Origin: Schmidtea nova
Taxonomy: Eukaryota
Direction of reading: 5' to 3'
Assembly (NCBI GenBank): GCA_044892505.1
Contig: CM097883.1
Span: 347,262,001 to 347,326,000 of the forward strand
Length of the DNA: 64,000 nt
Part shown: positions 13,913 to 62,678 of the stretch, in pieces
How positions within the stretch are numbered: position 1 is the stretch's first letter
Layout: every line of letters starts with the position of its first letter
Translations under genes and position numbers: made by a program
Notes under the pieces: model-generated
Told to the model about the DNA's origin: nothing
Databases searched by the model: none
What the model saw: the letters and a program-made list of their open reading frames with translations, nothing else

Positions 13913-13913
13913 G

Positions 13914-13981: not shown

Positions 13982-13983
<2 letters not shown>

Positions 13984-31944: not shown

Positions 31945-32230
31945 TAAAACTGGTTATAAATAAAACTTTGTTCTTGTAACTCACTGGAGCTTGATTCTTT
32001 TGTAATTTTTGCTTAATGATGATTTCATCATTAAGTTTCTTTTGTTTTGATCGTAATTAATATTCTATTTCAGATACCTTTTTACATCGATTGGTTTGAA
32101 CAAAGATTGTTTCTGCTTTTTTATTATTAATCGAACGTAGCTTTAAATTAGTTGCTGTTGCATCACAGAAATTATATGGGGATATAAATGGTCTTTGTAA
32201 TTTTGTTGATAGGCCTTTCACTGGTTCCGA

Positions 32231-33464: not shown

Positions 33465-33681
33465 TTTAATAAATTATTTTCTCAAATTACACAAAATCTA
33501 AATTTCAAAATTATTACTACAATCAATAACATTGTCACAATCTCGTTGAATAATTTTTCTTTATCACAATTTATATGCACTCCTTTTTCAATAAATTTTT
33601 ATTCAATAATTCTCCACCAATTTTGATCACGTCAGATTATGGTACAACTGTTTTTACTCAATAATATTTTCACCAACTTTG

Positions 33682-33699
33682 ATCACGTCGGGCTCACCA
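33682..33699 (-). promoter_or_regulatory. Primer binding site, tRNA-Trp type
   Basis: atcacgtcgggctcacca is the exact reverse complement of the 20288-20305 PBS and lies 5 nt from the LTR end. Confidence 0.85.
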
Positions 33700-33704
33700 A
33701 AATA

Positions 33705-34673: not shown

Positions 34674-35208
34674 AAGTGAAAATCACCAAAACCCAACACA
34701 ATAAATTTTATTGAATTCCACCAAATTACAAACGATAAATCAATATAATTTGTATTTTCTGCAAAACACTCAGCACTCTCATTTATTCAAGTGTTGGGTA
34801 TGGTAGTTTATTCAGTTTATTCTAGGGCTATGTCTATTTACACCAACATAAGTTGAATCTTTATCCGCCATGGGCACCCGCAAAATTCCCTAGACAAATC
34901 TTGCAGCGATACTGTGCCGATGTGGCCCATACCAAATGGGTAGGTGAGCGGCCGAAAAGGTCACTATTCTCCATTTTCGTACGCTCGAGTTCATGGCCGA
35001 TGGAAGGCCCATATTCCTTACCTTTGGTCTCTCCCATACTCCTTATTTAACTAGCACTTTTCTATACCGAAACACAAATCAAGCAATGAAATCGAAATGA
35101 ATTTTATTGATCTATCACATAGGTCTTATTGTGTGTAATAAATCAGCTTTGGCGAGGCCACTTAGCCAATCCACTTGGATTCACCTGATCAGCGTAGGTG
35201 CGGTGCTG

Positions 35209-35690
35209 TCAGCATCGTTCCGCTTCCATTCGATTACATTTCTTCGGGCTGGCAATGACTTGTGATTCTGGCGAAATTGCTTTCTCGAAGTTGTTGAGAA
35301 TCAGATCTGGCTCGACAACACTAGTCGGCTCGATTAAGTTCGCGACTGGGGACTGTTGAGTCCACCTTATTAGGTGATAGGTCTGATCTGGGCCGCTAAT
35401 TGGTTTCCGATGTAGTTGCGATATCGATCGCAAGAATGCTTTTAGTTTGCTTCGAGCTCTACCGACTGTTCTTCCAGGGTTCTCCGCGCTCACTCCGCTT
35501 TTTGGACTTGTTCTCGCATTCGCGCCGGAGAAAAATATAACTGTTTTACTTGCTCGAGTTCTTGAGCCTGTCGAGCGACAGTGACCTTGGCCACTTGGTT
35601 TTCCTGTCGGAGAGTGTCACATCTCTGGCGTGGTTCCTTTGGCGTACTGTTGTCCGAGGCTATATTTTCTAAAGTAAGGTACATCTTCAT
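35209..35690 (-). other. Decayed coiled-coil-like ORF(s), probably TE accessory
   Basis: CDTLRQENQVAKVTVARQAQELEQVKQ...EARRTLEEQSVELEAN has a heptad-like character and higher GC than the flanks; no family recognised. Confidence 0.3.
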
Positions 35691-36061
35691 TTATGGGAGG
35701 AGTGGACCCCTTTTCTTATAGTTTCCGGTCAACCTTTTGGAATTTGGTAATCTCATAAGTAGAATTGTTTATACGATGTTCATGTCTGTATTCTTCTCAT
35801 TTCGATGTCGTCGTTTACGACCATTTTATGTCATCATTTTTCAGAATTCGAGGCCATGAGTTAAAAAGATGTGGTGATTTGTTTCAGGTTATGACAATTC
35901 AACGTCATTATAGAGACTCAATTAGTTTTAATTTTTCATTAATTTCACTTTCGTCACCCATATACAAAACATCAGCTAGCTCCTCGCAATTTCCATCGGA
36001 CTCCCTTTTCTCATTTCGCAATCATTTGTTACAGTAATTATTTGAAATTCAAATATTCTTG

Positions 36062-36120
<59 letters not shown>

Positions 36121-37651
36121 TTGGACTCCCTCCCTGTCAAAAAAGAGAAATAAAGCAAGCAGAATCTTTATAGTAATTCTTATACTATAGAGATTAAAAC
36201 ATCAATGAAAAAATTGAAAAAATTAATTTCTTTGATTTATGAATATTGTTTTGATATGAAAGATTAAAATAATAATAATTATTATCTATGGTTCGTATTT
36301 ATCTTTATTTTTATTTAATAAATTGTTTTTTCAATTATATTTTATCTAGTTATTGTTTTTGAATCATTCATTAATATTGCAAACACAACATGCACAAGCA
36401 CACATAGGCGCAGTCGAACATAGCATTCACCCCAGCTGTCGCAAAACAAATTTTAAAGGAGACTGGCTGGGCTCAACAAACGCTTCATAACATTAGTAAT
36501 AACATTAATAAAACCATTTATACATGTGTTGAGGTTCCGAGAATCTCAATTTGATGTTTCTTATATAAATAAAAACAAGTCTGGTTCTTTTCGAAGACTT
36601 TATTTATTTATAACAATTACAAATTTGATAAAAATAAACGATTACCTCAAAGATAATAATTTTTAGTTATTTTGTATGTATATGTATGTGTGTGTAAGTG
36701 CTTGCAGTTTCCTGAGCTCGGATGTAAAAATTTTGTATGCTCGATTTTAATTTACAAATCGTTTACCGAATTTGTAATTCTTCTTAACTGTGTAAGATTT
36801 TAATGGTGGTTAGACTGAGAAATCAGTCTGGTTATTTACCAATTTTCTGTTGACACTCTATTTCGAGTGTCAACATACTTTGCTTTTGCGTATTTATTTT
36901 TTAATTACACAAAATGTGCTTTATTTATTTTAGAGTGCCTTTTATTTGCTAACATATATCGAGCTTCTTTTGCTCGTTAAATAATTATAATATTTTTTTC
37001 TTTTTTATAATAAAATAATAATTTTGCTAATAACAACAATAGTTATAATTTTCACCACAAGTAATAAGGGTAACAGTGTTTTTCATCAAATCTAAAAATT
37101 CCACCATGAGACAGCATCGCTTGACGAGGTTGAGCATGAGGTTGACAACGACCCAAGAGTAGCAAATTACACCGAAGTTTAATCAGATTTTCCTCCACAC
37201 GAACCCTCAAATTACACACGACCGGCAAGTTTGCATAATCTAATAATGAGTACTAGTGATGAGTGAATACATGATTTCTAAATGTTTGTACCTGGAAGGA
37301 GGGTGATTGACGGAGCAGTATGTTGAGATGCAAATGAAAATGATTCAGAATGTTCGTTTTGAACATATGAGAATTCCGGGCTGAAACGATCCTTTCCATG
37401 GTTATGGCTCGGTGAGAAAAAATAGTCAGTACGCAGTTCACCACAACAAGGAGAATAAATTACGTAGTGTTCGGTGAGGATGATACGCAAATACCAACTT
37501 ATCGTTATTTTTTCACCAAATATTAGCCAAAAATACGAAATAATCAGAAATCAGCATTGATCGATTAAATCCACAGCTAGGATCAATCCAATAAATTCCG
37601 TCGCCGATTCAACAGTTAACCAAATGCTGCACAACTCGATTTGAACCCAAG

Positions 37652-37652
<1 letters not shown>

Positions 37653-37737
<85 letters not shown>
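37653..37737. repeat. (AT)n microsatellite
   Basis: Direct reading; other (AT)n tracts at ~2328-2374, 18525-18543, 23632-23688 and 36068-36118. Confidence 0.95.
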
Positions 37738-37741
<4 letters not shown>

Positions 37742-38688
37742 TTAATCATATCAATATAGAAAATTAATAAAATCAATCACATAAACAATTAATACATTAC
37801 AAGGATGCAATCACAACTACAAAGATAAAATTGATTAAATAAGGATAAAACAGAATAAATTTGTCACAAAATAAAATTGTCGAAAGATAAAATAGATTGT
37901 TATTTGAATCACAAGGCTGAATGAGTTTGTGCCGTAATAGGATTGTCTAAAGATAGAATAGATTATTGTCTGAATTCCATCTTTTCATCGGGAGGGATCT
38001 TGTTAGATGATGTGTCTATGTGTATGTTTAGCCTATATCTATTTGTTCCTATGCTATAGTCTTCATCTAACTCAAATGATTCTACTATTTTCCCTGTCTC
38101 TAACACCTGTTATAAAACCACAATCTATTAAATAGTCATTTTCCTCTAATTTTCGAGGTTTATCTTTCAATTATACTATACATTCTTCCCGTTTCTCTTA
38201 ATTTATTTTTCAAATCTTTTACACGGTCATGGGCTTCACAACGTATACAATTTATACTTTTATCAATCTCATCAACAAAATAAAATAAGATCTAACCATT
38301 TGTTTTCTCTAAATGTTTTTCCAAATATTTTCATTAAAATTTTTATTTTATCTCGATTTTTTGAATTCACCTCATAGTAGTTTGCACATAAATTAATTAC
38401 ATATTTAAACTTCCTTATACTCAGTGACATCTTAGTTCCTTTACTGAACGAAACTTCCTTACGAGTTTCTAATAATTTATCACTTTTTATTATCTTTGTT
38501 GTCGATCTTACACTTTCCAGATCATCTTCTATGCATTTTCTTTTAAATTGGGTTTCCGTCGATTCCTGTTGCGAATCGTATATCATGATTATCGAACTCA
38601 TCATCTGATTCGAATTCAGACAAACTTAGACCTATTTCTTTAACTTTATTTTCGCTTTTTTCATTAAAATCATCTGATTGAACAACAG

Positions 38689-38938
38689 CTACATTATCTG
38701 TTTGCATTTTATTCTGAAATCTAATTGATATTTTAATATAGGCGTCTGAAATTTATCAATATGATCTAGCCATATTTCCGTAGCCTCTATATGAATGAAC
38801 AAAACAATTTCGTGAAACATGTCCTTTACTGTCACAATTATAACATTGTATATTATCATTAGCTCGTTGATTATTACTATTATTAAATGGTTTAACATTT
38901 TGAAATGCTGGACACCATGGCAAATATAATAAAATCAT
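38689..38938 (-). pseudogene. Gag C-terminal zinc-knuckle fragment related to 32231-32515
   Basis: NIQCYNCDSKGHVSRNCF and DKFQTPILK versus CYRCCRKRHVSRNCF and NKFQRPILK. Confidence 0.7.
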
Positions 38939-39557
38939 TCATTCATTCTACCAATTTTGAATCGGTCATAACCTTCACACTAACACCAATACAATCACTT
39001 GAAAAAAATAAAAACTGATATACATAACAACATCAATCTCATTTTGAAAAAATAATATATTTCTACGTAAATCCAATAGCTCGGTAAAACAAACTGTTCA
39101 ATAATTTAACAAAACATTCAATAAAGTTTTTATATAATATATAGTTTTTTCATTAATCAAATCTTATATTTACCAAATTTAAAAGCGACCAACAAAGTAT
39201 CATTACATAGAATTATGGATTTCTTTGGTATTAAACAATAACTAGAAAGAATTGAAAGAATTTCTAAAATGTTGGATAAAACGGTGGCAATGTAATAATA
39301 ATAAATGTAATGTAGCATAAAATTTCACACAACATTTTATATTTCGTATAACTTCGTGTTCGTGTCTTATATTTACGATTTGCAATAGTGTTGAGATTTG
39401 TTTAATCGAGTATAGTGTATATTGAAATATTTGGACATTGATTTCTGTACAATCATCAATATTTTTTAAATAGGTAAGTAAACAATAGCAGTTTTAATTT
39501 AATAACATTAGCAGTTTTAATTTAATAATTAAATTATTTTTATTAGAATATCCCAAA

Positions 39558-41516
39558 ATGTCATCAAAAGAAATTTATTCGGAATACACAAAGCAATATA
39601 AAAATCAAAATTCTGTTTGGATTCATTTTTTGAGAGGATCAAAAAAACTAACAGCAAAATGTAAAATATGTAATGAAATAGTAAAAACTTCTGGTTCAAT
39701 GACAACACCGCAGCACACGCATTTAAGAACAATACACAATATTAATGTATTAAAACGTGATTTCGTGCAAGATAAAGTTCCAGAAAGCAGCTCATCAAAA
39801 ATGATGATTACAAATTATTTAGTCAACAAAAAAGATGAACAACTTTCTGCAATTGTATCACGAATGTGTGCCTTGGATAATATGCCATTCAAAATTTTTT
39901 GTACGTCTATCGATTTGAGAAATTTATTTTTGGCTAGAGGCGCTCGAGATTATGTACTACCAAAATCACCTAACTCAATTCGCAAAATGGTTTTAGAATA
40001 CGCACAAAAAATGCGTGCTAAAATGATGCAGGATTTAATTAATTTCCAAAGAAGATGGAACACGATTTTGCTTAACTATAGATGAATGGACATCATTAAG
40101 AAACCGATGTTATTTAAATGCGAATGTCCATGGCAAGAAACAAATTTGGAATTTAGGTTTAGTTTAGGACGTTTCCCTGCAGAGAAATGCATTACGGCCC
40201 TGAAAATCACATTGCAAGACAACAATCTAAATATCGATAAAGATATTACGTCCATAACAACTGATGGGGCAGCTGTGATGCAAAAGGTTGGGCGGCTTTT
40301 ACCATGTAATCAGCAGTTGTGCTTTGCACACGCGATACATTTAGCTGTAGTTAATGTTCTGTATAATAATTCGAATACAACTGATGAATTGGTGGCTCAC
40401 ACAGATACAGAAAATGTTAGTATAGAAGAACAAGGAAGTGACTTCGAGAAATCAGAGGATGAGGAATACATTGATGATAAAAGTGTTGGCTTGATTGAAC
40501 AAATTTATATTGAAGCTGAGCATGTTGAGACTGAAGAATTTGGATTTGGTTTTCTCATCAAAAAAGTTCGTTCAATTGTAAAGAAATTTCGTTTTTCGAG
40601 AACATCGAATGATATTCTTCAAGTATACTTGAAACAAGAATTTGGAAAAGAGTTGAAACTTATTATGGACACTAGAACTAGATGGAATAGCTTAGTCGAA
40701 ATGCTTGAAAGATTTAACCAACTAAAAAGTTGTGTTAGAAAGGCATTGATTGACATTGCGTTTGATATCGTTATTCTAGATGCTGAAATTTTCTCGATTA
40801 ACAACATGATCTCTGCACTTCCCCCAGTGAAGCTTACTGTTGACGCCCTTTGTCGAGAAGATGCAAATCTGCTTTCTGCTGATGCGGCATTGTCTTTTAT
40901 GCTTGAGAATTTTGGATCTGATGAACTTTCACTAAAATTGAAGAACGAATTAGAAAACCGAATAACCCAAAGGTGAACAAATGTGTCTGGAACTCTTCAG
41001 TTTTTACACAATGGCGGAAAAAGTGAGATTCACTAATCTTTCACTAGACCATTGAAAAATACAATAGCCAAAGTTATTGAAAGCTTTGCACAAAGATTGA
41101 TATTTAACACTAACATGGAAACTTCCTCATGCGAGCAGTTAGAAGCTGAAGATGTGGAAGAGGTGATGTCGGAAGAACAAACCAATCCCCAGTCGTTATT
41201 GCAAAAGTTGCAGAACAAAATTCAATTGAATTTATCGTCTAACATACCTTCCAGCAAAACTCAACAAATAACAAATCGGAGCTTAATTTTAAAAATTAAA
41301 TCTGAAATGAAATTTTTTGAAGAAAACGGCGTTCGTGGCAAAATATTAGAGTCTGTCTACTCATTTTTGATTTTGATTCCGCCATCGAGCGTGGAGTCCG
41401 AGCGAGCCTTCTCAATTGCAGGTAACTTTTGTACAAAGGTTCGATCGAGACTCGGAGACACATCTTCAAGTGATCTCTGCTTCCTTAAAGCATATTTTAG
41501 GCAAACACAAGAATAA
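39558..41516 (+). pseudogene. hAT transposase with BED zinc finger (frameshifted)
   Basis: VWIHF...AKCKIC...HLRTIH (BED); TIDEWTS, TDGAAVM, CFAHAIHL, TRWNS and IPPSSVESERAFSIAG; frameshifts and an in-frame TGA at 40974. Confidence 0.92.
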
Positions 41517-41903: not shown

Positions 41904-43038
41904 AGCTGCATAGATGCAAATTTACTAATAATTAATTATCAACGAATTTATTTTTTTTATTTGAGTGGTGTACAGTTTTATTAAAGAATTACATGTATGA
42001 ATAATGTGTTTGCATTGTCTGATGCAGTATGCCGAGTGTTGAAGTCGTGCGAATGTTGGATGAGTGTGTGATTAAAATAGGAGAATTAATGATCTTTGTT
42101 TAACCTAGATGGAAGCAAACATTGACGAGATATTGAAGAGAACAATGGAAACTGTGCGAATAAACCTGCTTATCGACGTCATACTTGCTGATAAGGAAGA
42201 AGAAAGAAAGCTCAATGGATAACCCTACACGACATGACGATTCGGATAGAGAAGTTCCGGTCCCGGTGTCGTTCAATAGAAGCGACCTGGACCAAAAGAA
42301 GATGTGGACTAGTTGAAAAAGCAGATACAAGTCCTCTAACAACAGGCTGTGGAAGACGCCATGCAACTACGTGCTCTCAAAATGCTGACGAGGTAAAAAG
42401 ACAATAATATCGAAATTGCAGGTAGAAAGTGGCATCATCTCAGTCGTACTACTTAAGGTAAATTTGTCAGCACTAGAACTATTTCCGGTTCGAGCTAAAG
42501 ATGAGACATCGGTCACTCAACATCCCGAAGGGTTAAAACGATGGAAGCCTATTAAAGGCGCTCGCGCACGCTTAAAACGAAGAAAAGAAGCCCACGTGCT
42601 GGGGGAGATCCGAAAAACGAGTTTCAAATCGATCGATCTCACGATACTTGAAAAAAATTTGTGATAAAATTTGACAATATTTTTCTTTTTGTGTGTTTCT
42701 GTGCATTTTTCATTGTGTACTTCGGTTTATGTCAAGTGTATTGAAAAGTATAATTTCTTTGTGTATAAATTAATTTTCCTTATTATCCGTTATTATATTA
42801 AAAGTAATTAACAATAAATATATGGATCTAACTAAAATCGACCACGAAACTCCGATAACGACTTTCACTAAAGAATGATCAAAGTAAATAGTATAATAAA
42901 TCATGTTAAGTGACTCCGATGGGCGTTAAGCCTTCTATAGATAGCACTTGGACCTATTACGATGTTCGGTTAATCATAGTTTCGTTTGTTCGACGCTAAC
43001 TGTTTGCGGACATCCGCCCATTTGTTGCATTACCAACG

Positions 43039-43500
43039 TTACATTGTGACGAACAATGTGGTATTTGCGTAGTTCGCCTCCTCCATTGCTAATTGGATGA
43101 CATTTGTTTTTGATATACGTAAATGCATTTGTTTACCCCGCAAGAAACAGGCATCAAGATTTCGAATTGCCGTCATAGCTTGTGGGTGAATTGCAAACAA
43201 CACCAAAGCCGTATTTTTTTTGTTAAAGGTAATTGTAACATTTGCATTGGCCATCATGATATTGTTTGCTTTGATCATTTCTTTGTTATTTCGACCGTAC
43301 ATTATTAGAGAGCATATTAATCGCCCAACAGTTGGACATTGTGCTTTGCTAAATCGTTTTGTTTGATAACGGCCAGCAGACTGGGGAATTATTTTTGCAT
43401 ATTTTCCACTATAATTAATGCAATCTGCCAATGACAGATCGACAGCGCGAACATCATCAGTGCTCCATTTAATGAAAAGTTTAAAGTCAGACATATTCAC
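43039..43500 (-). pseudogene. PTB/hnRNP-L-like RRM fragment
   Basis: [50 protein letters not shown] resembles PTB RRM3 ([50 protein letters not shown]); the rest is not PTB-like. Confidence 0.6.
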
Positions 43501-43724
43501 AGTTTAACACAGAACACAAAATTATTTATATAAATAAATTCGACAATGCAAAACGTATATTTAAAAATACAAAAAAAATTAAAACAAGCGTTTTTTTATC
43601 TTTTCATTTTTTTAATACAATTTCTTTTTTTATATAATTAATTATATATTCAATATACTCTTAATATATATTTAATTTATATTTAATATAAATATTAAAT
43701 ATAAATTTCTGGAGGTAAGCGTCT

Positions 43725-44561
43725 GTGTTAGCTCAGGAAAAAGTTCTTAGTGAAAATCAAACTGGTGATTGCGATTTGAACTCAAATCAAAATGAAGTTA
43801 ACACGAAAAAGGATAATATTGCTGGTGAAATGGTTGACAACTCTAAGTCTGTCGGTATTGCAAGCGAGGATAAAATAAATACTACTTCAAACGAATTAGT
43901 GCAAGAAGTGAGGACGGAAATTGAATCTACAATGGTTGTGGAAGATGAGCAGGCAATGAATAAAGAAGATACTGAAGAAAATTGCATTGTCGATGAGAAA
44001 ATTGTGGAAAATATTAACGATATCGAAGAAAATTGTAAAATTGAGGAAAATAGCGGAGAGAATTCCATTGTTGATGAAAAGATGGAGCAAGAAATATTTG
44101 AAAGTTTGAATATTAATAAAAATGACAAAATAGATGAAATGTCTTTGGGAATTGAAACTATTTCTCAGCAAGTGCAACAATCTGTTGAGTTTCAGTAGTC
44201 ACTCCAAAATTCATTTGAAACAAGTAAAGACAAAGGTGAATTTGTAAAAGAAAATCTTGAAAATAAAATAAAAACGACTGAATTAGAATATAAAAGTGAA
44301 ATTAAAGAGCTAGAAGTAAAGTTAAAGAATTTGGCTGAAACTATAGAAACGTTATCAGTGGATATGGGAAATGTAAATGACATTAACGATAAATTGGCAA
44401 AGATAAATTTGGAAATAAAAATGTCCATATGTGTGAGGGTGAGTTTCCAGGATAGTACAAGAGGATTAATGGTCGAAGAAAAATTCAAGGACAAAAATAA
44501 GTATTGGCCGAAATGGAAAATAAAGTTAAGAATCAGAAGGTTTGCCCCCCCCCAGAGATGA
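43725..44561 (+). other. Acidic, repetitive coiled-coil ORF with one in-frame stop (TE ORF1/gag-like N-terminus?)
   Basis: EENCIVDEK/EENCKIEEN/ENSIVDEK repeats followed by ELEYKSEIKELEVKLKNLAETIETL; TAG at 44196-44198. Confidence 0.35.
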
Positions 44562-45109
44562 ATGGGTCAGTTGATCCGCTAGAAGCGACCAAAGCTTGCT
44601 TCTATCTGAGCCTATGTGTGCGTAGCAGGAGTGAAGTCGCGTCCGTGTGTGCTTTTATAGATTAATTTAGTTTTATTCTTGTAGTGAATGTGAAAGGTGA
44701 AAAGGCTTAATGCTAAAAAGGAAAAGGAATAAGAATAATAAACACGGGGTTGACACAAGGGTGTCAAGAAGGGGGGGAATGGTGATTTCTGGAGGTACGC
44801 GTCTGTGTGCGCATTGTCTTTTTATTTTGTTATCGCGTCTGTGTGCGCAGCACTTATTAATTTTTGGCCTTTTTGCGTATGTGTGCGCACGATTACTTTT
44901 TAGAGTGGAAATGGTTTTTTTATTGGATTAATGGATTTTGGAATTTATGATTTATTAATGGTAGTTGTTGTTTTAACGGTTTAATGATTATGGAGGTTTT
45001 TGGGGCGGAATTTGAATGTTGAAATTTGCTTAGTAGGATTATTGGTCTGGATATTTGTTCACAAATTTTGTTGATTAATTTGAAATATCGAAATTTGTTG
45101 TACGTATAA

Positions 45110-45610
45110 ATGGATGCGAGTGATTATAAACATTTAACTGAACCTATTAAAGTTGTTATTAAAGAATTTGCACACGCTATCAAAGAGCAAAGTAATTCCG
45201 TAATTCCAGTTTCAACAATTGCAACGATTGTAAATGAAGATCAAACATTTCTGATTCTTTATTACCGACATTTGTATGCTTATCTTTCCAATTCAATTTC
45301 ATTAAAGGATGGACTTGCTTCTTATTATAATTATTGTGATTTGTTCAATTTTATTTTAAATGCAGAAAGACCAATTAATCTAGTTCTACCTGAACAATGG
45401 CTGTGGGATATTATCGATGAATTCATTTACCAGAATCAATCATTTTGCCATCACCGTAACGAATTGGCATTCCGGCAAGATCTAAATGAGGAATTAGAGA
45501 AATTTGAGAAATCTGCTTGGACTATTCGCGCAGTTTTGAATATTCTTTATTCTTTTGGTGGCAAATCCAATATAAATTAGCAGCTGCAGGCTTATGCAAG
45601 CAGCGGAGTC
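45110..45610 (+). pseudogene. EIF3L: eIF3 subunit L N-terminal processed pseudogene fragment
   Basis: FLILY-YRHLYA, SYYNYCDLFNFILNA, LPEQWLWDIIDEFIYQ and KSNIN*QL match eIF3L; internal deletions, a stop and 3' truncation; no introns. Confidence 0.88.
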
Positions 45611-50443: not shown

Positions 50444-52576
50444 TTAGAAGATAATTTTATAACCATAAAATCCTTGAGGAGGAATGAAAATTTTCCGGAA
50501 ATCTTCTAAAGTCCGATACTCTTTGAGTTTCTCTTCAATTTCTGGAAAAGCCTCTAAAGTCAGATTCCCATATTGTCTCAAGGCCCAGAACTTTTCTAAT
50601 CCATACAAACTGTTCATTTCCAAATCTTTCAGCACATTATTCTGAAAATCTCTATACTCATTCAAAATAAATTTATCTCTATTTTCTAATTTATAAGTAA
50701 ACATGCGAAAAACGCATTCAACCCCATATCGATAGCCGTGTTCAGCATCCTGCCACGCTAATTCCTGGAATTCTTCATACATTTTCTTTTGACTGTTTTC
50801 TCGCAAGAAAAATGACCAAAATCGAAACAAAGCATTCATTTCAGCTGAACGACCAAATCCGGTTTCCTGTCGATCCCGCAAAGCATTTTCTTTAAATTCC
50901 AAATAAAGATTCAACTTAAAGTCGTCGTTCAACAATATTTCACCAATGTGATTTTTATGGGGATTTTCCAAGCCCTTGGCAACGGTTTTACCAGAATCGG
51001 GATATTGGCTATAACTATTAGATGATGATACCCGTTTCCTTCTACTTCTATTGAAAATATATCCAATCATCGGATCTTTTGTTGTTCGAACTTCCTCATT
51101 GTCAGACTCATAGAACAACAAATGATTTATACCTTTCTTTACTTTCTTATGAACTCCTTTACCCTCCTTCCCTCGGTTAGACTGTGGTAATATTGTCAAT
51201 GGTGTAGCTTCAACGTAGGTTTTCTTGTATTCAAAAATGACATTATCTAGTAAGTTATCTAACTGGTCTACTTTATTGTTGTAAATATTTGAGTAACTAG
51301 TTTGGAATGCATTTACAGGGTTGTTGCAAGAACTAATGGAGGCTTCGTTCAAAAAGTCATAATTTATTTCTTCTTGGTTTAAAGGTCTTAATTTATGTAT
51401 TAACACAGAAGGATTATTGTTAATATTAATCCAAGACATTTTTTCTTCAATACTCATTTTCGAATCTGGCAAGCAGTAACCAGATTCATCTTGACTCTCA
51501 TAGCTCGAAACACTGGAAAAAGAGTGGTATCGGTTTCTTGTACTGAAGGTTTCTTGTAAACCTTTCTTTAATATACTTCTTTCCTCACTATCGGGATAAA
51601 CATTTTCGATGACTGAATCGGTATCACTAATTTCATGCCATTCCGGTGTCGCACCTTTCAGGGTGATCAAGTACACATTATTCTCGTCCAAATCACTGCA
51701 CGATTCCATTGTAGTTCGTCTTTTTCGATAAATTCTTTTCGACTGAACTGCTACGTTTTCGTCATTTCCAAATTCGAATGTGAGATTATCATCAATGACC
51801 TTTTCTTGATTCAACATGATTTCTGATCTCGGTTGAGGTATATATGTCTCCAAAAATGGTTCCAATTCGGTTTCAAAATAGGAGAAAATATAATTTGGAA
51901 AGGGCATTTCTAATTTCAAATGGATATATTTTGTTACATGAAAGGCTTGTAATATCATATGTAAGTTGTTCATGTCTTGTCTACGAATCATGTTGTTCGT
52001 GCTGTCAAATTGCAAAAATGAAGGTTCACTGCCATTGACCGTGAATGGCGGCAGCACAAATTTCCTACAAATATTCCTAATATCAATAACTGTTGTTCGC
52101 GTTCTTTTCATTCTTGGGAAATCTAATAATACTTGTATAGGCATCCATCCGTTAGGGTCCATGTTATTTATCATAAAATTATCTTTTCGTAAATTCGCTT
52201 CACTGAAATAAAAGTATAACAAGTTCATTCGGACATACATGATACTTTCATGATACTGTATCGTCCTGAATGATTCTTCTACGTTTGTACTTATAGCGGT
52301 GCATTCTTTTGCCATCGAGCAATAGGTTCTTACTTTACCGTTTTCGTAAGTGTCAAAATTGAATTCATAAGCAAAATTTTCATTGAATTCTTCAATTGCC
52401 ATTTCCATATTTACAGACTTGGTCTGAGATAATTTTTTTCTCTTTTCATTATAATTTTTTGAACTTTTTGAATTTTTTACTTCCGATTCAAATGCTTTTT
52501 TAGAAGCTTTTTTAGAAGCTTTTTTAGTAAGTTTCAATTGACGAGACTCGTTTAAATCTGGCCATTCGGTATCCAT
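50444..52576 (-). CDS. LARP1: La-related protein 1 (La motif plus DM15 repeats), intronless, ~710 aa
   Basis: La motif YFYFSEANLRKDNFMINNMDPNGWMPIQVLLDFPRM; DM15 EMNALFRFWSFFLRE, GYRYGVECVFRMF, YGLEKFWA; uninterrupted ORF. The likely start is MDTEW at 52576 (the ORF track starts at 52612). Confidence 0.93.
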   Translation of the reverse strand: MDTEWPDLNESRQLKLTKKASKKASKKAFESEVKNSKSSKNYNEKRKKLSQTKSVNMEMAIEEFNENFAYEFNFDTYENGKVRTYCSMAKECTAISTNVEESFRTIQYHESIMYVRMNLLYFYFSEANLRKDNFMINNMDPNGWMPIQVLLDFPRMKRTRTTVIDIRNICRKFVLPPFTVNGSEPSFLQFDSTNNMIRRQDMNNLHMILQAFHVTKYIHLKLEMPFPNYIFSYFETELEPFLETYIPQPRSEIMLNQEKVIDDNLTFEFGNDENVAVQSKRIYRKRRTTMESCSDLDENNVYLITLKGATPEWHEISDTDSVIENVYPDSEERSILKKGLQETFSTRNRYHSFSSVSSYESQDESGYCLPDSKMSIEEKMSWININNNPSVLIHKLRPLNQEEINYDFLNEASISSCNNPVNAFQTSYSNIYNNKVDQLDNLLDNVIFEYKKTYVEATPLTILPQSNRGKEGKGVHKKVKKGINHLLFYESDNEEVRTTKDPMIGYIFNRSRRKRVSSSNSYSQYPDSGKTVAKGLENPHKNHIGEILLNDDFKLNLYLEFKENALRDRQETGFGRSAEMNALFRFWSFFLRENSQKKMYEEFQELAWQDAEHGYRYGVECVFRMFTYKLENRDKFILNEYRDFQNNVLKDLEMNSLYGLEKFWALRQYGNLTLEAFPEIEEKLKEYRTLEDFRKIFIPPQGFYGYKIIF

Positions 52577-53089
52577 TGCAAAATATAGTAATAAATAATA
52601 AATAACAAACAAATTTTAATCAAATCTTAGTGGAAAAAGCTTAAAAAAATATTTCTATTCAAATTAAAAATATTTAAATTAGTTTTTCATTAGAATTTTA
52701 AAAATTTTATTTAAATATTTTATTTTAACAAAAATTTGAAAGCAGGGTGAATGGAAATTATTTTATTCAGAAAGATTATACATTTCGTAGATAATTATAA
52801 AATTTTTGAAATATATTCATTTTAAATATAAAATATTTAAATTCGTTTTTTATAATTATTTTATAATATTTTTTTTATTTCTTATTATGATAATTATATA
52901 TAATTTTTTTAATTAAACGTGTAGGAATAATAAAAGCAAATTAGTTTTTATTAATAGAAATTGATCGCTAATTGATAAGTCGGTTTTTGGCAACCGGAAA
53001 TCTTGACCGATGATAACAAGAGTTGAAATGAGCAAGCTCCATGACAGTCCGTATTGACTGATTTCTGGTGCTGGCGAATAATCGTTTAA

Positions 53090-53398
53090 TCAAGAATGAT
53101 TGTGATCCAATGTATTGATTTGTAGATTTTTTGAGTTAGTCATTTCAGATTTGTCTGGATAGTAGATTAATATTGATCCAGTTGTTGACAAGCATCTTCC
53201 AGTTTGTACGGCTTCTTTACGCATTCCAGCAGCGAAACATTTCTGCAATCTACGGAACTGGCAATTGTTTCTTCTTTGAATATCGACTACACCATCTCCA
53301 CTAGAGTAGAACTGATAATTGTTGTCATTTGATGAAAACGAGTCACTGTGAATGTCTTGGGTGAATGGGAATATCGAATCATTGTTAACAGCTTGCAT
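53090..53398 (-). pseudogene. Nuclear-receptor DBD fragment (second zinc finger plus T-box, NR2-like), degenerate
   Basis: GDGVVDIQRRNNCQFRRLQKCFAAGMRKEAVQ versus the consensus CxVDxxxRNxCQxCRxxKCxxxGMxxEAVQ; several Cys lost and first finger absent. Confidence 0.75.
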
Positions 53399-53621
53399 TT
53401 TGTTTTTTTTTTGATTAGCATGAAAGTGAAAATATGTAAATATTAAAACAACATCTATTTTACTCCATTTAATAATTAATTAATTTATAAAATTGAAAAT
53501 TTAATCTAAGGCACTACAAAACGATTATTTTTAAATATGTATGCATGTAAATTATGATATTATTACTAATTTACGAATTGTGAAGTAATAAAAGTCACAT
53601 ATCACTTAATTTCATCAACAA

Positions 53622-53882
53622 ATGTTCATTTACAGTAATATAGCCAATCCGGTAATTGTTGGTGATTCATTAGTTCCCATGTTAAAATCGGTATAGATTA
53701 AAAAACATGAACAGGAAGATGTTCTACAAATACAAGTAAAAAATCTAATGTATTTAACGGTATCAACTTCTTGTATAAACAATGTAGAAATTAATATCAG
53801 AGATTATAGAGATAAATTAATAAACTTTCCAATAGATTCAAAAACTCATTTGATTGTACATTTTGGAAAAAGTGATGAGTAA
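53622..53882 (+). pseudogene. Polinton/Maverick minor capsid (penton) C-terminal part
   Basis: MFIYSNIANPVIVGDSLVPMLKSV*...MYLTVSTSCINNVEINIRDYRDKLINFP...LIVHF fits the Polinton penton pattern (YxDIxxxxIVGD..PLL...Y.P...IEI.I.D..G..I.F...LHF). Confidence 0.75.
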
Positions 53883-54480
53883 TTCCGATCTAGTTTCTTT
53901 TGTACAGTAATAGCGAAACTGGAGGCGAATTACCGTATTTTGTAGGTAAATAGTATGTATCAGGTTGGTTGAAAACAATTGGAATATTTTGGAATGAAAA
54001 CTTAGAAGATGTGATCATGAAAGATAATAAAAAAATGCTTTGGCTCCAGTTAATAAAGCTTTACCTGCTGTATCACAAATGTTTCCTTTCATTACAAATA
54101 TGTTTACCAAAAATGAACTGAAACCTGAATCAGTGGGACGAAGACGTAAAGAGAGTAGAAAGCGTATAAACAATCAAATGAAAGGACATTGAACTATATT
54201 TGAAGAACGATTTGCGATAAATCTAAATTATGTCTTAGATCGACCATCTTCCAAACTAGTTATTGAAATTGGGGTATTTGAAGATGTATTTTTAATGAAC
54301 TCTTTAACAGATAGTAGAAATGATATGGAATTTACATTATCGGTTTTCAAACTGAATATTTAAATTTGAATGATACTTTATTATCCGTTACTGTCAAGGT
54401 TGTAGATAAAGATAAAGATAAATTAGCTGATTCAAGTGATGTAGTACATAATATTTAACTGTTTCAAAGATGCAATTTTT
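53876..54480 (+). pseudogene. Polinton small core-like protein remnant followed by major capsid protein N-terminus
   Basis: TGGELPYFVGK*YVSGW (GG cleavage-type motif), then PSSKLVIEIGVFEDV..NSLTDSRNDMEFT / TEYLNLNDTLLSVTVKVVD, an MCP N-terminal pattern; the gene order penton-core-MCP is typical of Polintons. Confidence 0.65.
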
Positions 54481-54590
54481 GGATTTTGGTCGCGCCCGCT
54501 CTTAAAATATTTTTAAAAATAATTAAATAATATTTAAAATAATTAATTGCAGAGCTTGATTGCTGTGAGAGATTGTGGAGCAAGCCTGAA

Positions 54591-54632
54591 GCCTTTAGAC
54601 GGTCTTATCGAAATCTATATAAATCTTATATG
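54591..54632 (+). other. Planarian spliced-leader exon (42 nt) fused to mRNA-like sequence
   Basis: gcctttagacggtcttatcgaaatctatataaatcttatatg matches the S. mediterranea SL as I recall it (GCCGTTAGACGG...TTATATG) at 41/42. It is followed by GAAT, not the GT donor of an SL RNA gene. Confidence 0.85.
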
Positions 54633-54665
54633 GAATATCTCTTCGAACTTTTCTTTTCTTAATAA

Positions 54666-55121
54666 ATGGATGAAACTGAATCTACAATTAACACAACTGC
54701 ATTCTTATCTGGAAACGGTAAATGTCAACCAAATCAAACAATTCAAATAATTTTGGACAATTATAAACTGGAATATTTAGTGAATTTAATTTTAAATGAC
54801 GTAAATAATCGTTTGATTTTTACCCCAACTCACGGAGACAGAAGTGCGATATGTTGTTTTGTACTGCTGTCATTACTTCATCAAGAAAATTCAATGATTA
54901 AAAATCAAATTTGTTTTATTTCTCCCGATAGTAATTGTAATATTAATGCTGAATTGATAATTTTCACTGAAAAATGTCTTATTGAAAATAATCTATCTTT
55001 AATTTCAGAGAAACAAAATCTTAGCATTAATTTAAATAATAAAAGTTCGTGTTTTCTGATTCTAAAAATTATGACGATGAGGATGCATTTCGTCACGTCT
55101 GTGTGCGCAGTGGTGTTGTAG
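54666..55121 (+). pseudogene. Unknown ORF downstream of the SL (retrocopy body; may continue in 55438-55820)
   Basis: 151-aa ORF starting 33 nt after the SL; identical copy at 61532-61987; no family recognised. Confidence 0.45.
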
Positions 55122-55818
55122 TGACAATTTTTATGTGGCTTGATTGGTGTGCGCATACAGACCCGAGGTTCAATAAATCAAAATAAATCAATTTGCTTTT
55201 CTTTTAAAAACTTTGAGACATTATTGATTTGTTTTACTGGGTTAATTTAATGAATTTTTAGGGTTCGGATTTAAAAATTGCTAAGTGAATTTTAAGTAGA
55301 ATTTAAAGGAATTTTTGAGATTGGGTTTTGTCACAGTTTTGTTCGGTTTTATCTGTGCTTTTGGGATGAAAATAATTTTGTAATTTTGATGAATTAATAA
55401 ATCAATGAATTTTGGATTTAATTTCATTTGATTTAAAATGATTAATGAAGAATTGACCGAAGACGAAGATTTTATTGATAATGAGTTGTTACGAAATGTG
55501 GTCAATGAAATCGAGAGCTCTCTTATGGATGATTTAATTAATGTGTTGTCTTTGCGAGATCCAATCATTAATGATAAAGTGAGATCTTCAGTAATTGTAG
55601 AAAAGTTACAATTTAATTCACCGATATCTGACAGTGATTATTGGTGCAAATTGAATGTTTGTTGAACACCTCTTACAGAAAAACTCCAAAATTCTCCAAT
55701 TTGTAAACTTTGTTATAATTTTCGAACGGGCATTTTGTCCAATCCCAGACTCATTCTTGATGATATAGAAGATGGATCTGAAGGAAATGATACTAATAAA
55801 ACTGATGATATAAAATTG

Positions 55819-55875
<57 letters not shown>

Positions 55876-56229
55876 TTAACAATAACCAAAATAATAACAT
55901 CAATTATCTAAATAATATGTCAGTAAATAATAAAAGAAAAAATAATAATAATATTTTGGATTCAGTTCTGAATAAAATCATTAAAGTAAGCTATATCAGT
56001 GATGATGAAGATGAAATTATTAATAATAAAATTATTACTATCAGTGATACTATCAGTGATACTATCAGTGATACTATCAAATACACAAATTAATAATCAA
56101 GTAAATAATCAAATATGATATGGTTTACTCGAAGTTAATTCAGACTTAAACGACAACCATATCATTATTAAAATAGACTTGTCTAATTTATTATTAAAAA
56201 CGGTCTCAGAACCAGATATCCTTCTAAAT

Positions 56230-56880
56230 AAATTAAATTATTTTATAAAAAATGAAATCCGTTAAAAATCATTTTTGCCTAAAGGTAGAATTTGAGAAAG
56301 ATGATGAGTTAGAATCTTTCGTCATCTCAAATTCTGCCAAAGTTTAGAGTGATACCTTCATTGATGAAGGTATTGCTCATTTAAATGGAAATTAATACAA
56401 ATTAATGAAAAAGGTAGCAATTATACTATAAATAAAATCGAATACATTCGCTTTATCCTAACCAAATTTTCGGAAATCAGTCGATTAAGTGGCAAAAGTT
56501 TCATTGAAAACCCAAGATCAATAAAATGTTTAAGCTGCCCTGTAAATGTTATAAACAATGACGACTTTTGTTTCTTATATAGTTTCTTGGCTAAAGTTAA
56601 ATATCATCAATAGGCAAAATAGAAATCGTACTTCCTCTTATGATTTTTCTCAAATAAAATTCGACCCTACTGATATGCCGATGAAACTGGCTAATATAAG
56701 TAAATTCGAGCATCAAAAACCCCGGCTATAGTACTAATGTCCTTACATACGACATAACTAATGATGATGCAGTTATTAATCATCCTTTTACAGATTTAAT
56801 TTACCGAAGTAAGGTAGTATGAGGAATACCGATAAATGTATTACTTTTAGAAAATAAGAATACTTATCATTATATTGCTT
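56230..56880 (+). pseudogene. Polinton protein-primed DNA polymerase B, N-terminal region
   Basis: GSNYTINKIEY...LSGKSFIENP...VNVINNDDFCFLYSFLA...ISKFEHQ...TNV...INVLLLENKNTYHYI, matching the pPolB N-terminal pattern (GSGW...GSSYI.LP...IN..N.D..CF.W..LA...KFE..N...NLLL....HY). Confidence 0.75.
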
Positions 56881-58105
56881 ATCATCATATACTTTCATGT
56901 ACACACACCTAATACCAGTCAAAATTGGTTTACACACATAAAATTCCGCCAAAGTTGGTTTACACATATTATAATCATTCTATCGTAAATGCTCTAGAAG
57001 TGACACATCATACTACTATACATTGTGAACAAAATGGAGAAATTTAGATCCACCTTTTAGGGTACAGTCGAATATAAATTGAGTATTGGACTTAAATGGG
57101 CAATGCAGCTTCCATCGGTCGCCCATAAAACTATCGTGACATTCAGTCAATCAAAGTTTCGAATTTTCAGCGCTCACTGTTTGTGGATGTACACGCATTA
57201 GTTGCATTACCAACGTTACACTGTAGAGGGCAACAAGATGGTTAATCAATGTTTTATGTGCTGAGTTGTTGATGTGAGCCATAATAACGCCAAGGTCATA
57301 ATGACTGTCAATAACCCACCAATAGTAACAATAGAAATTAAACAACCCATACACTAAAAATTCAAAATTATAGAAAACACTTTAAGTAATCGCTGCTTTA
57401 AAATTCTGTTACAAATCAATTGGGCACAAATATCATTAAGCGAAAGTTAGAAAATAAAATTAGATACTGATTTTATAAAAAAAAATCTAATTTAATTGAC
57501 TTAAATACAACGGTGGGTTGAGATTTACAGATTCTTATCTACAAATATTCTTATTGAACATGCAATTATTCACAATTAATTTTTATTGTTTATTATAAAA
57601 TAAAAATTCAAAACGAATTAATAAATTTCAAGAGAGTAAAAGTAGATAAACTAATGTAATAAAAACTAATTTTCGTGATAATTAATATAAAATTTGTAAA
57701 ACTTGAAGTTGAAAGATTAGAAATAATAAAATATTATTACAACTAAAAACTGTTAAAATAATCAATTCTTTTGTATAAATTTTGAAATTTTGGAGCAAAA
57801 TTTAAATGAAAAACTTAAATTGTTTCAATAAATTGTTATTAGAACAAAATTCAAATAAAAAAACATGGAGAAAAATATATTTTATTAAATATATTGTGAG
57901 GTATAATTAATCTTTTTTTATAAACTTAATAAATTTTTTAGAAGGCTTTAACTATCTCAACAGTATTAGAATGATATGCTAAATAGAAAGCTAATAATAT
58001 TATTAAAAACTCGGTATATTTTAAACTATTTTTTCGTCCTATTAAATAATATTTTAACCTTGATAGAAAATATAAAACATACTTTTTTATGTTTATGTTT
58101 ATTTT

Positions 58106-59640
58106 ACAGCGTTTACCAGCTATTTTATCAAATGATTAATATTCCATCAAAAATGAGTTTAAGATATGAGTATTTTTCCTCAACAGTTTTGTATATTTTC
58201 TAACGCTATCAGAAATATCAATTTAATCATTTTAATAAACCAATTTACTTGCTGATTTGTTAATTACAACTCCAATTCGATAATTACATCCGACGTTGAT
58301 TCCGTCTCATTGCGTATATTTTTGATGAGATTAATCTACTACCTTATTCATACATTTATATTTTTTCATTAATTTTTTTCATATAAAATGATCAACAAAT
58401 GAGTTAAGTGTACAAGCAGCTTTCTTATTCAACTCTTATATTTTCTGCTACAATCACAAAAAAAAAATAAATGATTTTAATAAATAAAATTACTTGTTGA
58501 TATATTTATAAACGCGACAGTTCTCTCATTAATTAATTATATTCATTTTTCATCTAATCAGAACCCATCTAATCTCTGAAATTATTAATCAGAATAAGTT
58601 CTCATTTCACACCTAATTGCATTGAAAAGACAGCTAATTGACTGCTTATTGCATGCAATTGCCTTTTATCACAATACCCGATTTTCAAATATTTCACATT
58701 ATTAATTACAACTCTAATTCACTTCGATTCGATAATTACATTCGACGTTGATTCCGTCTCATTACGTATATAATTGATGAGATTAATCTACTGCCTTATT
58801 CATGCATTTATATTTTTTATTAATTTTTTTCATATAAAATCATCAAATGAGTTAAGCGTATAAGCATCTTTCCTTTCCAACTCTTATATTTTCTGCCACA
58901 ATCACAAAAAAACTAATTAAATGATTTTAATAAATAAATATACTTTTTGATATAATTATAAACGTTCCACTGCTCTCATTAATTCAATATATTTATATCT
59001 CATTGAACCCATCTAATAAATTATTAATCAAACCAAGTTCTTATTTCACATCCAATTGCACTGTAAAGGCAGCAAATTAGCTGCTTGCTGCATGCAATTG
59101 ATTTTTATCGCAATAACTGATATTCAAATATTGCAAATAATCTGTGACAATGTAAAGTTTACAGCGTTTACCAGCTATTGTATCAAAAGATTAATATTCC
59201 ATCAAAAATGAATTTAAGATATGAGGTATTTTCCCTCAACTATCAGTAATATCAATTTAATGATTTGAATAAACCAATTTACTTGCTGATTTGTTAATTA
59301 CAACTCCAATTCGATAATTACATTCGACGTTGATTCCGTCTCATTGCGTATATTTTTGATGAGATTAATCTACTACCTTATTCATACATTTATATTTTTT
59401 TCATTAATTTTTTTCATTTAAAATCATCAAAAAATGAGTTTTTATGATTTAATAAACCAATTTACTTGCTGATTTGTTAATTACAACTCCAATTCACTTC
59501 GATTCGATAATTACATTCGACGTTGATTCCGTCTCATTGCGTATATTTTTGATGAGATTAATCTACTGCCTTATTCATACATTTATATTTTTTCATTAAT
59601 TTTTTTCATTTAAAATCATCAAAAAATGAGTTTTTTAGTT
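58106..59640. repeat. Degenerate tandem array of a ~130-190-bp module
   Basis: aattacaactc...cgacgttgattccgtctcatt.cgtata...gatgagattaatctact.ccttattcat at ~58262, 58704, 59296 and 59479; acagcgtttaccagcta block at ~58106 and 59161. Confidence 0.85.
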
Positions 59641-59929
59641 CTCTCATTAATTCGATATATTTATTTCTCATTGAATCCGTCTGTAGTTATCTTAAAATTT
59701 GATTATTAACTATGAATGTTTGCTAAGTGCCGCAGCCACCGTTTGCTTGGTGTCATTTTGGCGGGACATGCAACGGAATGTGAAATTGTTATTATTTTTC
59801 ATTGTTATCGTTTTAAATTTCATTTTTTTAAATAACGCCACGGCAGCTACAGACAAATCATAAAATAAAACACTTTAGTTAAAATCAAAACACACTTTTT
59901 AAAAACAAAGTAGTCAATTGGATTTCGGT

Positions 59930-60610
59930 GGAAAATGGGCCGATATAGTTTAACATAGATTCAAAACAGTCTCTATTTTCTTTCACCTAATGTTGTCGCC
60001 ATTGGAACTCCGATAAAAAGATTACAAATGATGTCTCGCTGTTCCTCTTGTTCCTCTTGATCTCTTGTTCCTCCATTTAGCACTGCTCCACATTCTCTCA
60101 ACTGTTTGTATGAACTCCTTTATCAGGATCAATAAAATTGTATTTATGATTAACTTTAGCATGTAGGAATCCTTTTATTTTTATTTGTTTGGTAACCTTT
60201 CCAACTGTCAGAATAAATTGTGGTACCATCTGCAATGTTTTCAATAATTTTATCAAGAAGGGTAGAGCTAATTATATTAGGAACATGGACAACAAACGAA
60301 TCATTTGTTTCTCTACATATAACACCAAACAGCTGGTGTTCGGGTAATTCTTAACCACAATTATTTTTATCAATTTTCCAACTTTTATCAATTTCCACAA
60401 TACAATCTGGTCCACCTACCTTCTTGTTTGGTTTATTTTCCATATGCAAGACACATAATTGTTTGAATTTATAAGATAAATCAAGTTGCTTTTTACAAAA
60501 TGTAATCGACGTAAACTCCTCGCAACAACAGTATATGAATCTCAAAGCTGAACAAAATTGAATTCTGCTTCCCTCAGACCACTTGTCTTTTCTAAGTCCC
60601 ACTTGCTGAT
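59930..60610 (-). pseudogene. Merlin/ISXO2-like DDE transposase fragment
   Basis: KVGGPDCIVEIDKS, FGVICRET, TIYSDSWKGY, VNHKYNFIDPDKGVHTN and EFQWR; several stops. Confidence 0.85.
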
Positions 60611-60818
60611 CACACTGTCTTAAATTACATTTTCAAAATGTATGTTTACCAAAATAAAGTTTCATGTATATTTTAGTTTTTGGTAAAATATTTCGCTCCT
60701 GAAAAAATAAAATTTGCATCCTAAATACGTATTAAAAAAATCTGTGTGTGAACAACAATTATTAACAGTTAATTAAATATTAAAATTAAATATCAGTTTT
60801 ACATTTTTTTAGAAATTT

Positions 60819-62678
60819 GTATGTATCAGGTTGGTTGAAAACAATTGGAATATTTTGGAATGAAAACTTAGAAGATGTGATCATGAAAGATAATAAAAAA
60901 ATGCTTTGGCTCCAGTTAATAAAGCTTTACCTGCTGTATCACAAATGTTTCCTTTCATTACAAATATGTTTACCAAAAATGAACTGAAACCTGAATCAGT
61001 GGGACGAAGACGTAAAGAGAGTAGAAAGCGTATAAACAATCAAATGAAAGGACATTGAACTATATTTGAAGAACGATTTGCGATAAATCTAAATTATGTC
61101 TTAGATCGACCATCTTCCAAACTAGTTATTGAAATTGGGGTATTTGAAGATGTATTTTTAATGAACTCTTTAACAGATAGTAGAAATGATATGGAATTTA
61201 CATTATCGGTTTTCAAACTGAATATTTAAATTTGAATGATACTTTATTATCCGTTACTGTCAAGGTTGTAGATAAAGATAAAGATAAATTAGCTGATTCA
61301 AGTGATGTAGTACATAATATTTAACTGTTTCAAAGATGCAATTTTTGGATTTTGGTCGCGCCCGCTCTTAAAATATTTTTAAAAATAATTAAATAATATT
61401 TAAAATAATTAATTGCAGAGCTTGATTGCTGTGAGAGATTGTGGAGCAAGCCTGAAGCCTTTAGACGGTCTTATCGAAATCTATATAAATCTTATATGGA
61501 ATATCTCTTCGAACTTTTCTTTTCTTAATAAATGGATGAAACTGAATCTACAATTAACACAACTGCATTCTTATCTGGAAACGGTAAATGTCAACCAAAT
61601 CAAACAATTCAAATAATTTTGGACAATTATAAACTGGAATATTTAGTGAATTTAATTTTAAATGACGTAAATAATCGTTTGATTTTTACCCCAACTCACG
61701 GAGACAGAAGTGCGATATGTTGTTTTGTACTGCTGTCATTACTTCATCAAGAAAATTCAATGATTAAAAATCAAATTTGTTTTATTTCTCCCGATAGTAA
61801 TTGTAATATTAATGCTGAATTGATAATTTTCACTGAAAAATGTCTTATTGAAAATAATCTATCTTTAATTTCAGAGAAACAAAATCTTAGCATTAATTTA
61901 AATAATAAAAGTTCGTGTTTTCTGATTCTAAAAATTATGACGATGAGGATGCATTTCGTCACGTCTGTGTGCGCAGTGGTGTTGTAGTGACAATTTTTAT
62001 GTGGCTTGATTGGTGTGCGCATACAGACCCGAGGTTCAATAAATCAAAATAAATCAATTTGCTTTTCTTTTAAAAACTTTGAGACATTATTGATTTGTTT
62101 TACTGGGTTAATTTAATGAATTTTTAGGGTTCGGATTTAAAAATTGCTAAGTGAATTTTAAGTAGAATTTAAAGGAATTTTTGAGATTGGGTTTTGTTCG
62201 GTTTTATCTGTGCTTTTGGGATGAAAATAATTTTGTAATTTTGATGAATTAATAAATCAATGAATTTTGGATTTAATTTCATTTGATTTAAAATGATTAA
62301 TGAAGAATTGACCGAAGACGAAGATTTTATTGATAATGAGTTGTTACGAAATGTGGTCAATGAAATCGAGAGCTCTCTTATGGATGATTTAATTAATGTG
62401 TTGTCTTTGCGAGATCCAATCATTAATGATAAAGTGAGATCTTCAGTAATTGTAGAAAAGTTACAATTTAATTCACCGATATCTGACAGTGATTATTGGT
62501 GCAAATTGAATGTTTGTTGAACACCTCTTACAGAAAAACTCCAAAATTCTCCAATTTGTAAACTTTGTTATAATTTTCGAACGGGCATTTTGTCCAATCC
62601 CAGACTCATTCTTGATGATATAGAAGATGGATCTGAAGGAAATGATACTAATAAAACTGATGATATAAAATTGATAAT
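60819..62678. repeat. Segmental duplication, copy 2 (1860 bp), including a second SL copy at 61457-61498
   Basis: Near-identical to 53953-55823. Confidence 0.97.

Follow-up and report, generated by a model that had tools for sequence, protein, structure and literature searches.

Leader exon and layout of the locus

The locus described here lies in a window (the whole 64,000-nucleotide stretch of Schmidtea nova DNA that was analysed) of AT-rich, repeat-rich eukaryotic scaffold sequence with five N gaps. A spliced leader (SL) is a sequence normally joined to messenger RNAs by splicing; in the window, a 42-nt leader stretch at 54591-54632 ends in ATG and is followed directly by GAATATCTC. The final ATG opens a 10-codon upstream ORF (uORF) that runs to TAA TAA and then to the ATG of a 151-aa ORF (54666-55121), the frame being the same throughout. 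To this point the letters are as the first-pass annotation of the locus gave them. The features recognized around the leader are listed in Table 1.

Table 1. Features at and around the leader-bearing locus, in window coordinates; depth is summed contig depth
Feature	Position	Strand	Basis or remark
Left neighbour: broken high-copy repeat with capsid-gene-like pieces	53613..54480	+	61-69% identity to unnamed proteins P0002-P0004
DNA-duplicated block, copy 1	53951..55823	+	Begins 640 bp 5' of the leader
Candidate target-site duplication, left copy (weak)	54477..54486	.	Exact 10-nt repeat
Upstream flank common to other genomic leader copies	54487..54590	+	Contig depth and loose ends; left edge uncertain, about 54455-54499
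Planarian spliced-leader exon without GT donor, ending at the splice position	54591..54632	+	35/35 to the exon part of published SL1 that is printed
Piece A, probably an internal exon of an ALDH-like gene	54633..54708	+	Frame from 54634; weak match to protein P0001
Piece B, ALDH16A1-like coding fragment, low-copy	54708..55063 (match 54741-55061)	+	48/107 to P0001; depth 17-57 in four sets
Moderately repeated 3' stretch without ALDH match	55064..55409	+	Depth 93-500
Candidate target-site duplication, right copy (weak)	55410..55419	.	Exact 10-nt repeat
DNA-duplicated block, copy 2	60817..62678	+	Leader 61457-61498, ORF 61532-61987

The leader is that of a planarian. Compared by eye with the exon part of SmedSL1 printed in Fig. 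S6 of PMC10899757, positions 54598-54632 are identical at 35 of 35 letters, and the same 35 nt are identical in all six printed rows (one for S. mediterranea SL1 and five for S. polychroa SL genes); the figure covers the last 35 nt of the exon, and the first 7 nt of the leader are absent from it. At the composition of the window, a 35-mer match is expected by chance about 5e-11 times per Gb. The full length of 42 nt is our assumption about the exon, the comparison itself extending over 35 nt. The host could accordingly be named as a planarian from the leader, as the first-pass annotation had done, but not as a species, both Schmidtea species in the printed comparison having the 35 nt.

Published planarian SL genes (PMC10899757) continue after the exon with GT and an intron. 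At the locus there is no GT donor directly after the leader's ATG; the window reads GA there, and the earlier description of an SL exon without its donor holds. Two short intron and Sm motifs showed no excess over shuffles in the window (13 matches against a mean of 14.6; 3 against a mean of 1.84), and folding gave no significant structure (z -1.06). Rfam returned no match at gathering score in the whole window and five matches, at chance level, in 54300-55500; a tRNA search found none. Searches of metagenome and viral contigs with the leader gave 0, 2 and 0 matches, both of the two being unrelated outside a 20-mer. An exact leader lacking GT, with intron and Sm motifs at chance level, is thus a planarian leader exon that does not sit in an SL RNA gene, and both its identity and the absence of donor and intron at the locus are direct observations.

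An ALDH16A1-like fragment behind the leader

The 151-aa ORF had no Pfam match above cut-off, and a word-index protein search with it as query yielded none of 386 candidates. An exhaustive search of 1.84 billion representatives returned a single match, P0001 (E 3.8e-12), with ORF residues 26-132 aligned to P0001 aa 140-244 at 48 of 107 identical positions (45%). P0001 is a protein of 662 aa from a single Logan record. Its own Pfam matches are weak (Aldedh PF00171, 19.9 bits against a cut-off of 23, and DUF1487 PF07368) and lie nearly all outside the matched part; it has weak SSADH matches too, and its nearest atlas cluster is named ALDH16A1 (score 0.95). As a word-index query it retrieved itself alone among 7,999 scored. 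Through P0001, piece B has its closest known counterparts in the ALDH16A1-like proteins (Aldedh, DUF1487). The remaining parts of P0001 had no significant match in the window, and no full-length ALDH16A1-like reading frame was found there: about 105 of 662 residues are present. Two earlier leads for the ORF, CDC45 (atlas lead 0.87; tool level 0.9) and a by-eye likeness to helicase motif I, were dropped once P0001 matched. A suspected continuation of the ALDH match past 55062 in another frame found no support (three frames from 55062-55064 against P0001 aa 240-255, p 0.29-0.82).

Contigs were taken from public sequence data, namely four runs of one study containing 62-70% of sampled words (contig sets X1-X4), and aligned to 52950-55818 at 80% likeness. 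No RNA run is among those listed with matching words, which has no bearing on expression. In all four sets the contig over 54660 (one per set) carries one extra base, which puts the uORF out of frame with the 151-aa ORF; the extra base may come from sister copies. The first residues of the ORF do not match P0001. As the ends of the ORF lack a match to P0001 and its middle has one, the ORF is probably a frame accident around a middle gene fragment and, judged from its sequence, probably not a gene. The gene with a uORF and a 151-aa product that the first-pass annotation proposed is thereby replaced by the middle piece of an ALDH16A1-like gene, and under our reading the uORF and the ORF would be frame accidents without function.

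Within piece A lie the uORF and the first codons of the 151-aa ORF; both use a frame other than the one that begins at 54634. Over 25 codons from 54634, the best colinear match in P0001 is aa 98-122, a weak one (score 15, p=0.025, an uncorrected value for one of three frames over a range chosen afterwards; p=0.68 for a match anywhere). The frame of piece A ends and that of piece B starts at a codon boundary at 54708, on one shared base. Contigs fork there in different ways. In X2 and X4, contigs begin at 54679, with 30 letters left of 54708 (the tool's bridging rule is 31), and track the window to 55054 without a difference; if k=31, these starts would correspond to a fork after 54708. In X1 a contig begins at 54708, and in X3 a 919-letter contig enters 54708 from 533 letters unaligned there, with one substitution. 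The four sets retain different forks and all come from one study. No join with 40 or fewer letters between was present at 54708 among the joins listed, which argues against a small deletion.

Such forks are suggestive of a spliced exon joint that has lost a base, and in this they favour an origin from RNA. Clean splicing loses no base, and the missing base thus counts against a plain exon joint; the sequence fits a candidate exon-exon joint short of one base, but equally a join by microhomology or a switch of template. We conclude that the leader was probably placed on an internal exon of the ALDH-like gene.

A multi-copy flank, the insert ends and the surrounding repeats

In the bin that contains the leader, summed depth is 28,303-40,827 across the four sets, and in the following bin 36-86, a drop past the leader end of 477-, 476-, 1080- and 461-fold. 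The bin upstream of the leader (54486-54581) is also high, at 10,556-17,447; these values are sums over contigs and not copy numbers, and short contigs aligned at 80% likeness let AT-rich matches inflate them. Among the 24 rows listed across X1-X4 (1,174 further rows exist), contigs end loose before 54582-54588 in X1, X2 and X3 (14, 18 and 7 contigs; agreement 0.76, 0.85 and 0.97) and in none of the six rows listed for X4. The X2 majority equals the window at 26 of 30 letters over 54560-54589, by eye. On the other side of the leader, 37 contigs of X3 have loose ends behind 54632 with an agreement of 0.44, i.e., diverse continuations, and 4 contigs of X1 have them behind 54633, with an agreement of 0.5 and a majority that starts like the intron in the published figure, again among the rows listed. 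No contig bridges the leader junction among the 32 pieces listed (9,688 further).

The depth profile and the shared loose ends show that the leader and its left flank belong to a multi-copy family, and that the leader is no free 5' end standing at a unique site. A processed retrocopy is expected to have unique genomic flank directly 5' of the mRNA end; the flank here is common to 7-18 contigs in three of the four sets. The family would be either the SL RNA genes themselves, with their 5' flank, or a mobile element that ends here. Judging by the contigs, many leader copies in the genome seem to have the shared flank, and many a continuation other than the intron; with contigs this short, the shared-flank loci and the diverse-downstream loci may be different loci. 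The earlier proposal of a reverse-transcribed, trans-spliced mRNA is affected in two ways: an RNA intermediate is plausible, given the candidate joint at 54708, whereas copying at full length to the 5' end, followed by integration, is not supported, the flank being multi-copy.

The flank is promoter-like, featuring a GC-rich patch, an AT tract and an inverted motif that we take to be CCAAT-like. A 14-mer with this core (54554-54567) recurs at 55138-55151 at 13 of 14 letters, both in GC-richer patches, and the pair is possibly a shared promoter motif. Folding of the flank was not significant (z -0.14). Two of the four sets contain a join of low depth that connects 54626 with 55077 and leaves out the ALDH piece (side of 28 letters; the tool's caution level is 30); it may reflect a sister copy that lacks the cargo, or else a match by chance.

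At the other end, the moderately repeated 3' stretch contains AATAAA at 55172, 55182 and 55396. As the first-pass annotation noted, no poly(A) tail is visible: there is no A-run of 6 or more anywhere in 54591-55936. The 10-nt exact repeat of Table 1 is AT-rich, equalled or bettered by 2-9% of random window pairs, and could be a target-site duplication round a 923-bp insert (54487-55409) that includes the flank, without touching the leader. Directly beside 54591 there is no exact repeat of at least 8 letters with two or more G/C, and the locus showed neither a terminal inverted repeat nor a tail or hairpin.

The whole locus lies in a 1.87-kb block that is present twice, the copies being identical except for a substitution at the edge and an 11-bp indel. 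That the block begins well 5' of the leader (Table 1) points to a duplication at the DNA level, or two alleles assembled in tandem, after the leader was gained. Position 55823, which had been taken as the end of the feature, is instead an edge of this later duplicated block.

The left neighbour has a summed depth from thousands to more than 200,000. It and the pieces at 55438-56760 (+) are broken, repeated sequences with a Polinton/Maverick-like look, resembling penton, a small core protein, the start of hexon and the N-terminus of polymerase. This label found no support in Pfam, NCBIfam, PDB, viral contigs or fold searches; two predicted models were of low confidence (pLDDT 34.8 and 47.2), the best fold-search E was 0.01, and database homologs, all unnamed, were found for the 53613-54480 piece and not for 55438-56760. 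Beside the capsid-like pieces, 53093-53398 (-) encodes part of a DNA-binding domain of the nuclear-receptor type (Pfam zf-C4, 28.4 bits), with several zinc-binding cysteines missing; its depth, in the tens of thousands in four sets, makes it seem cargo of the high-copy repeat. A back-join from 55388 to 53466, with 14 letters between (3 of 4 sets, depth 4.5-13.3), is another arrangement of the repeat elsewhere.

Farther out, a 710-aa LARP1-like ORF without introns (La domain and LARP1 HEAT region; 50444-52576, -) lies within a repeat-rich region and is either a single-exon gene or another retrocopy. By eye, host-gene-looking pieces stand amid transposon fragments at 42389-45577, among them frames that we presume to be like ribosomal protein S5 (43042-43503, -) and eIF3 subunit L (45110-45577). 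Left of block copy 2, 59690-60816 resembles a Merlin/IS1595-type transposase, with no Pfam or NCBIfam match; right of it, the sequence from 62679 onward begins like an LTR, by eye. A local cluster of degenerate repeats, spaced about 190-450 bp apart, occupies 58100-59640.

Origin of the locus and known systems

We propose that a trans-spliced RNA was copied into DNA and that the locus is likely this copy, now dead; its leader probably served to attach it to a leader-bearing unit that exists in many copies. Since the flank is common to many genomic leader copies, the dead mRNA copy was likely captured via the leader and not inserted at a random site. The full account, in which leader homology linked a trans-spliced cDNA fragment of the ALDH-like gene to a genomic unit bearing the leader, stands at about even chances. 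Under it, a leader would have been trans-spliced onto an internal acceptor near aa 97 of the gene, as known from parasitic flatworms, and reverse transcription of the RNA would have followed once the intron separating pieces A and B had been removed. The cDNA end, complementary to the leader, would then have annealed to a leader copy in the genome, either in an SL RNA gene or in a leader-ended repeat, or else switched template onto the RNA of the leader unit, and through either event the flank of that unit would now stand 5' of the leader. The product may have landed in a decayed repeat, lost one base at the A/B joint as well as its 3' part, and been duplicated as DNA thereafter. Against this account stand the lack of a poly(A) tail and of a downstream SL intron, the weakness of the target-site duplication and of the protein match of piece A, and the base missing at the A/B joint.

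The depth drop and the loose ends also resemble a repeat that finishes at 54632 with diverse right flanks, and a leader-ended mobile element inserted beside a pre-existing ALDH-like fragment, with the leader junction as an insertion site and not a trans-splice junction, is a less probable reading that still carries appreciable weight. The weak target-site duplication round 54487-55409 speaks for it, as does the low-depth join between 54626 and 55077 described above, which hints at a sister copy that lacks the ALDH piece. It would leave the candidate exon joint at 54708 and the colinear frame of piece A unexplained; the terminal inverted repeat, tail or hairpin searched for at the locus did not appear, and many leader-capped retrocopies would give diverse right ends equally well. 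Rather speculatively, there may be an undescribed high-copy planarian element whose right end is the leader exon cut at the splice position, and which captures cDNAs of trans-spliced host mRNAs behind a promoter-like flank via leader homology, in effect an animal system of gene capture guided by the leader; this we consider doubtful. It is improbable that a trans-spliced mRNA, reverse transcribed as far as its 5' end, went into a random site with the insert starting at 54591: 30 or more bases 5' of the leader are common to many leader-bearing contigs, unlike a random target, no exact repeat of 8 or more letters with at least two G/C lies beside 54591, and the gene is present as an internal fragment only. 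Such a simple retrocopy would nonetheless account for a leader that is apparently complete and without donor, so far as the printed exon reaches, and for the candidate joint at 54708, and the same kind of event is established in dinoflagellates (PMC6050394).

An equally slim chance attaches to a displaced SL RNA gene (flank and exon) that lost its intron by DNA rearrangement and was fused to an ALDH-like fragment with no RNA step. SL genes would be expected to share a flank 5' of the exon, the leader is followed by a G like that of the published donor, and the 4 contigs of X1 that exit at 54633 have an intron-like majority, though with an agreement of just 0.5. A random break would seldom fall at the splice position, however; no intron or Sm remnant exceeds chance, and the forks at 54708 are left unexplained. 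Least credible is an assembly artefact or cDNA contamination. The N gaps of the scaffold, the near identity of block copies only 6.9 kb apart and the lack of a bridging contig at the leader junction among the pieces listed would suit it, but cDNA would not include an untranscribed upstream flank, all four sets contain the left flank, with 0-1 differences near 54160-54380, and piece B, likewise with 0-1, and X2 and X4 cross 54708 identically to the window. An artefact limited to the duplication alone is possible.

Leader-mediated capture is our preferred reading. As a single locus, the insertion is a dead fragment, and its value is that of a pointer to other leader loci. If the shared-flank and diverse-downstream loci prove to be the same, the leader would be a common handle by which any trans-spliced transcript could be inserted behind a ready promoter, and such a leader-handle route to retrogenes would be one for which we found no planarian description in the literature covered. 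Such loci confound SL-based annotation, mimicking trans-splice sites and SL genes, and they would archive internal trans-splicing events of germline or stem cells.

In the open literature covered, we found no description of a leader-ended planarian repeat or of a shared leader flank; the accessible parts of PMC7346339, PMC11410931, PMC2770079, PMC4558846, PMC6880638, PMC12460157 and PMC8629364 contain neither a planarian SL flank nor such a repeat. From the planarian SL RNA gene itself (SL1 of S. mediterranea and S. polychroa, as printed in PMC10899757), the locus has the identical 35-nt exon part and possibly the same upstream flank, but not the GT donor, intron, Sm site or a significant fold. 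SL-targeting non-LTR retrotransposons offer another likeness, in that SL flank, exon and foreign sequence could resemble the 5' ends of nematode NeSL elements; according to PMC4640811, NeSL is nematode-only, and planarian LIN families target 28S rRNA and tRNA genes. Unlike NeSL, the locus has no element ORF (reverse transcriptase and restriction-like endonuclease) after the leader, where ALDH-like low-copy sequence stands instead, and no SL-gene remainder at the 3' end of the insert. The SLACS/CRE elements of trypanosomatids are also SL-targeting non-LTR retrotransposons.

Overall, the locus is genuine and non-random; its general kind is known, and its anatomy differs from the one first proposed. 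Leader-bearing retro-insertions are already known from flatworms and dinoflagellates, and the shared flank before the leader is the part for which no prior description was found. In dinoflagellates, a DinoSL relict 5' of a coding sequence marks an RNA-derived copy, as the leader does here; those retrogenes, according to PMC6050394, are often whole and surviving, unlike the internal, frameshifted fragment with a multi-copy flank before its leader. The closest parallels come from the survey of parasitic flatworms by Calvelo et al. 2025 (PMC12582326), which leaves out free-living planarians. It reports 597 repeat-associated genomic loci with a partial leader only, for which its authors invoke integration of trans-spliced transcripts, and it confirms true internal SL acceptors. 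Like those loci, ours is a genomic leader without SL RNA features near repeats; unlike them, with their partial leaders and a cargo thought to be the retrotransposon itself, it combines a leader of at least 35 nt with host-gene cargo and a shared flank.
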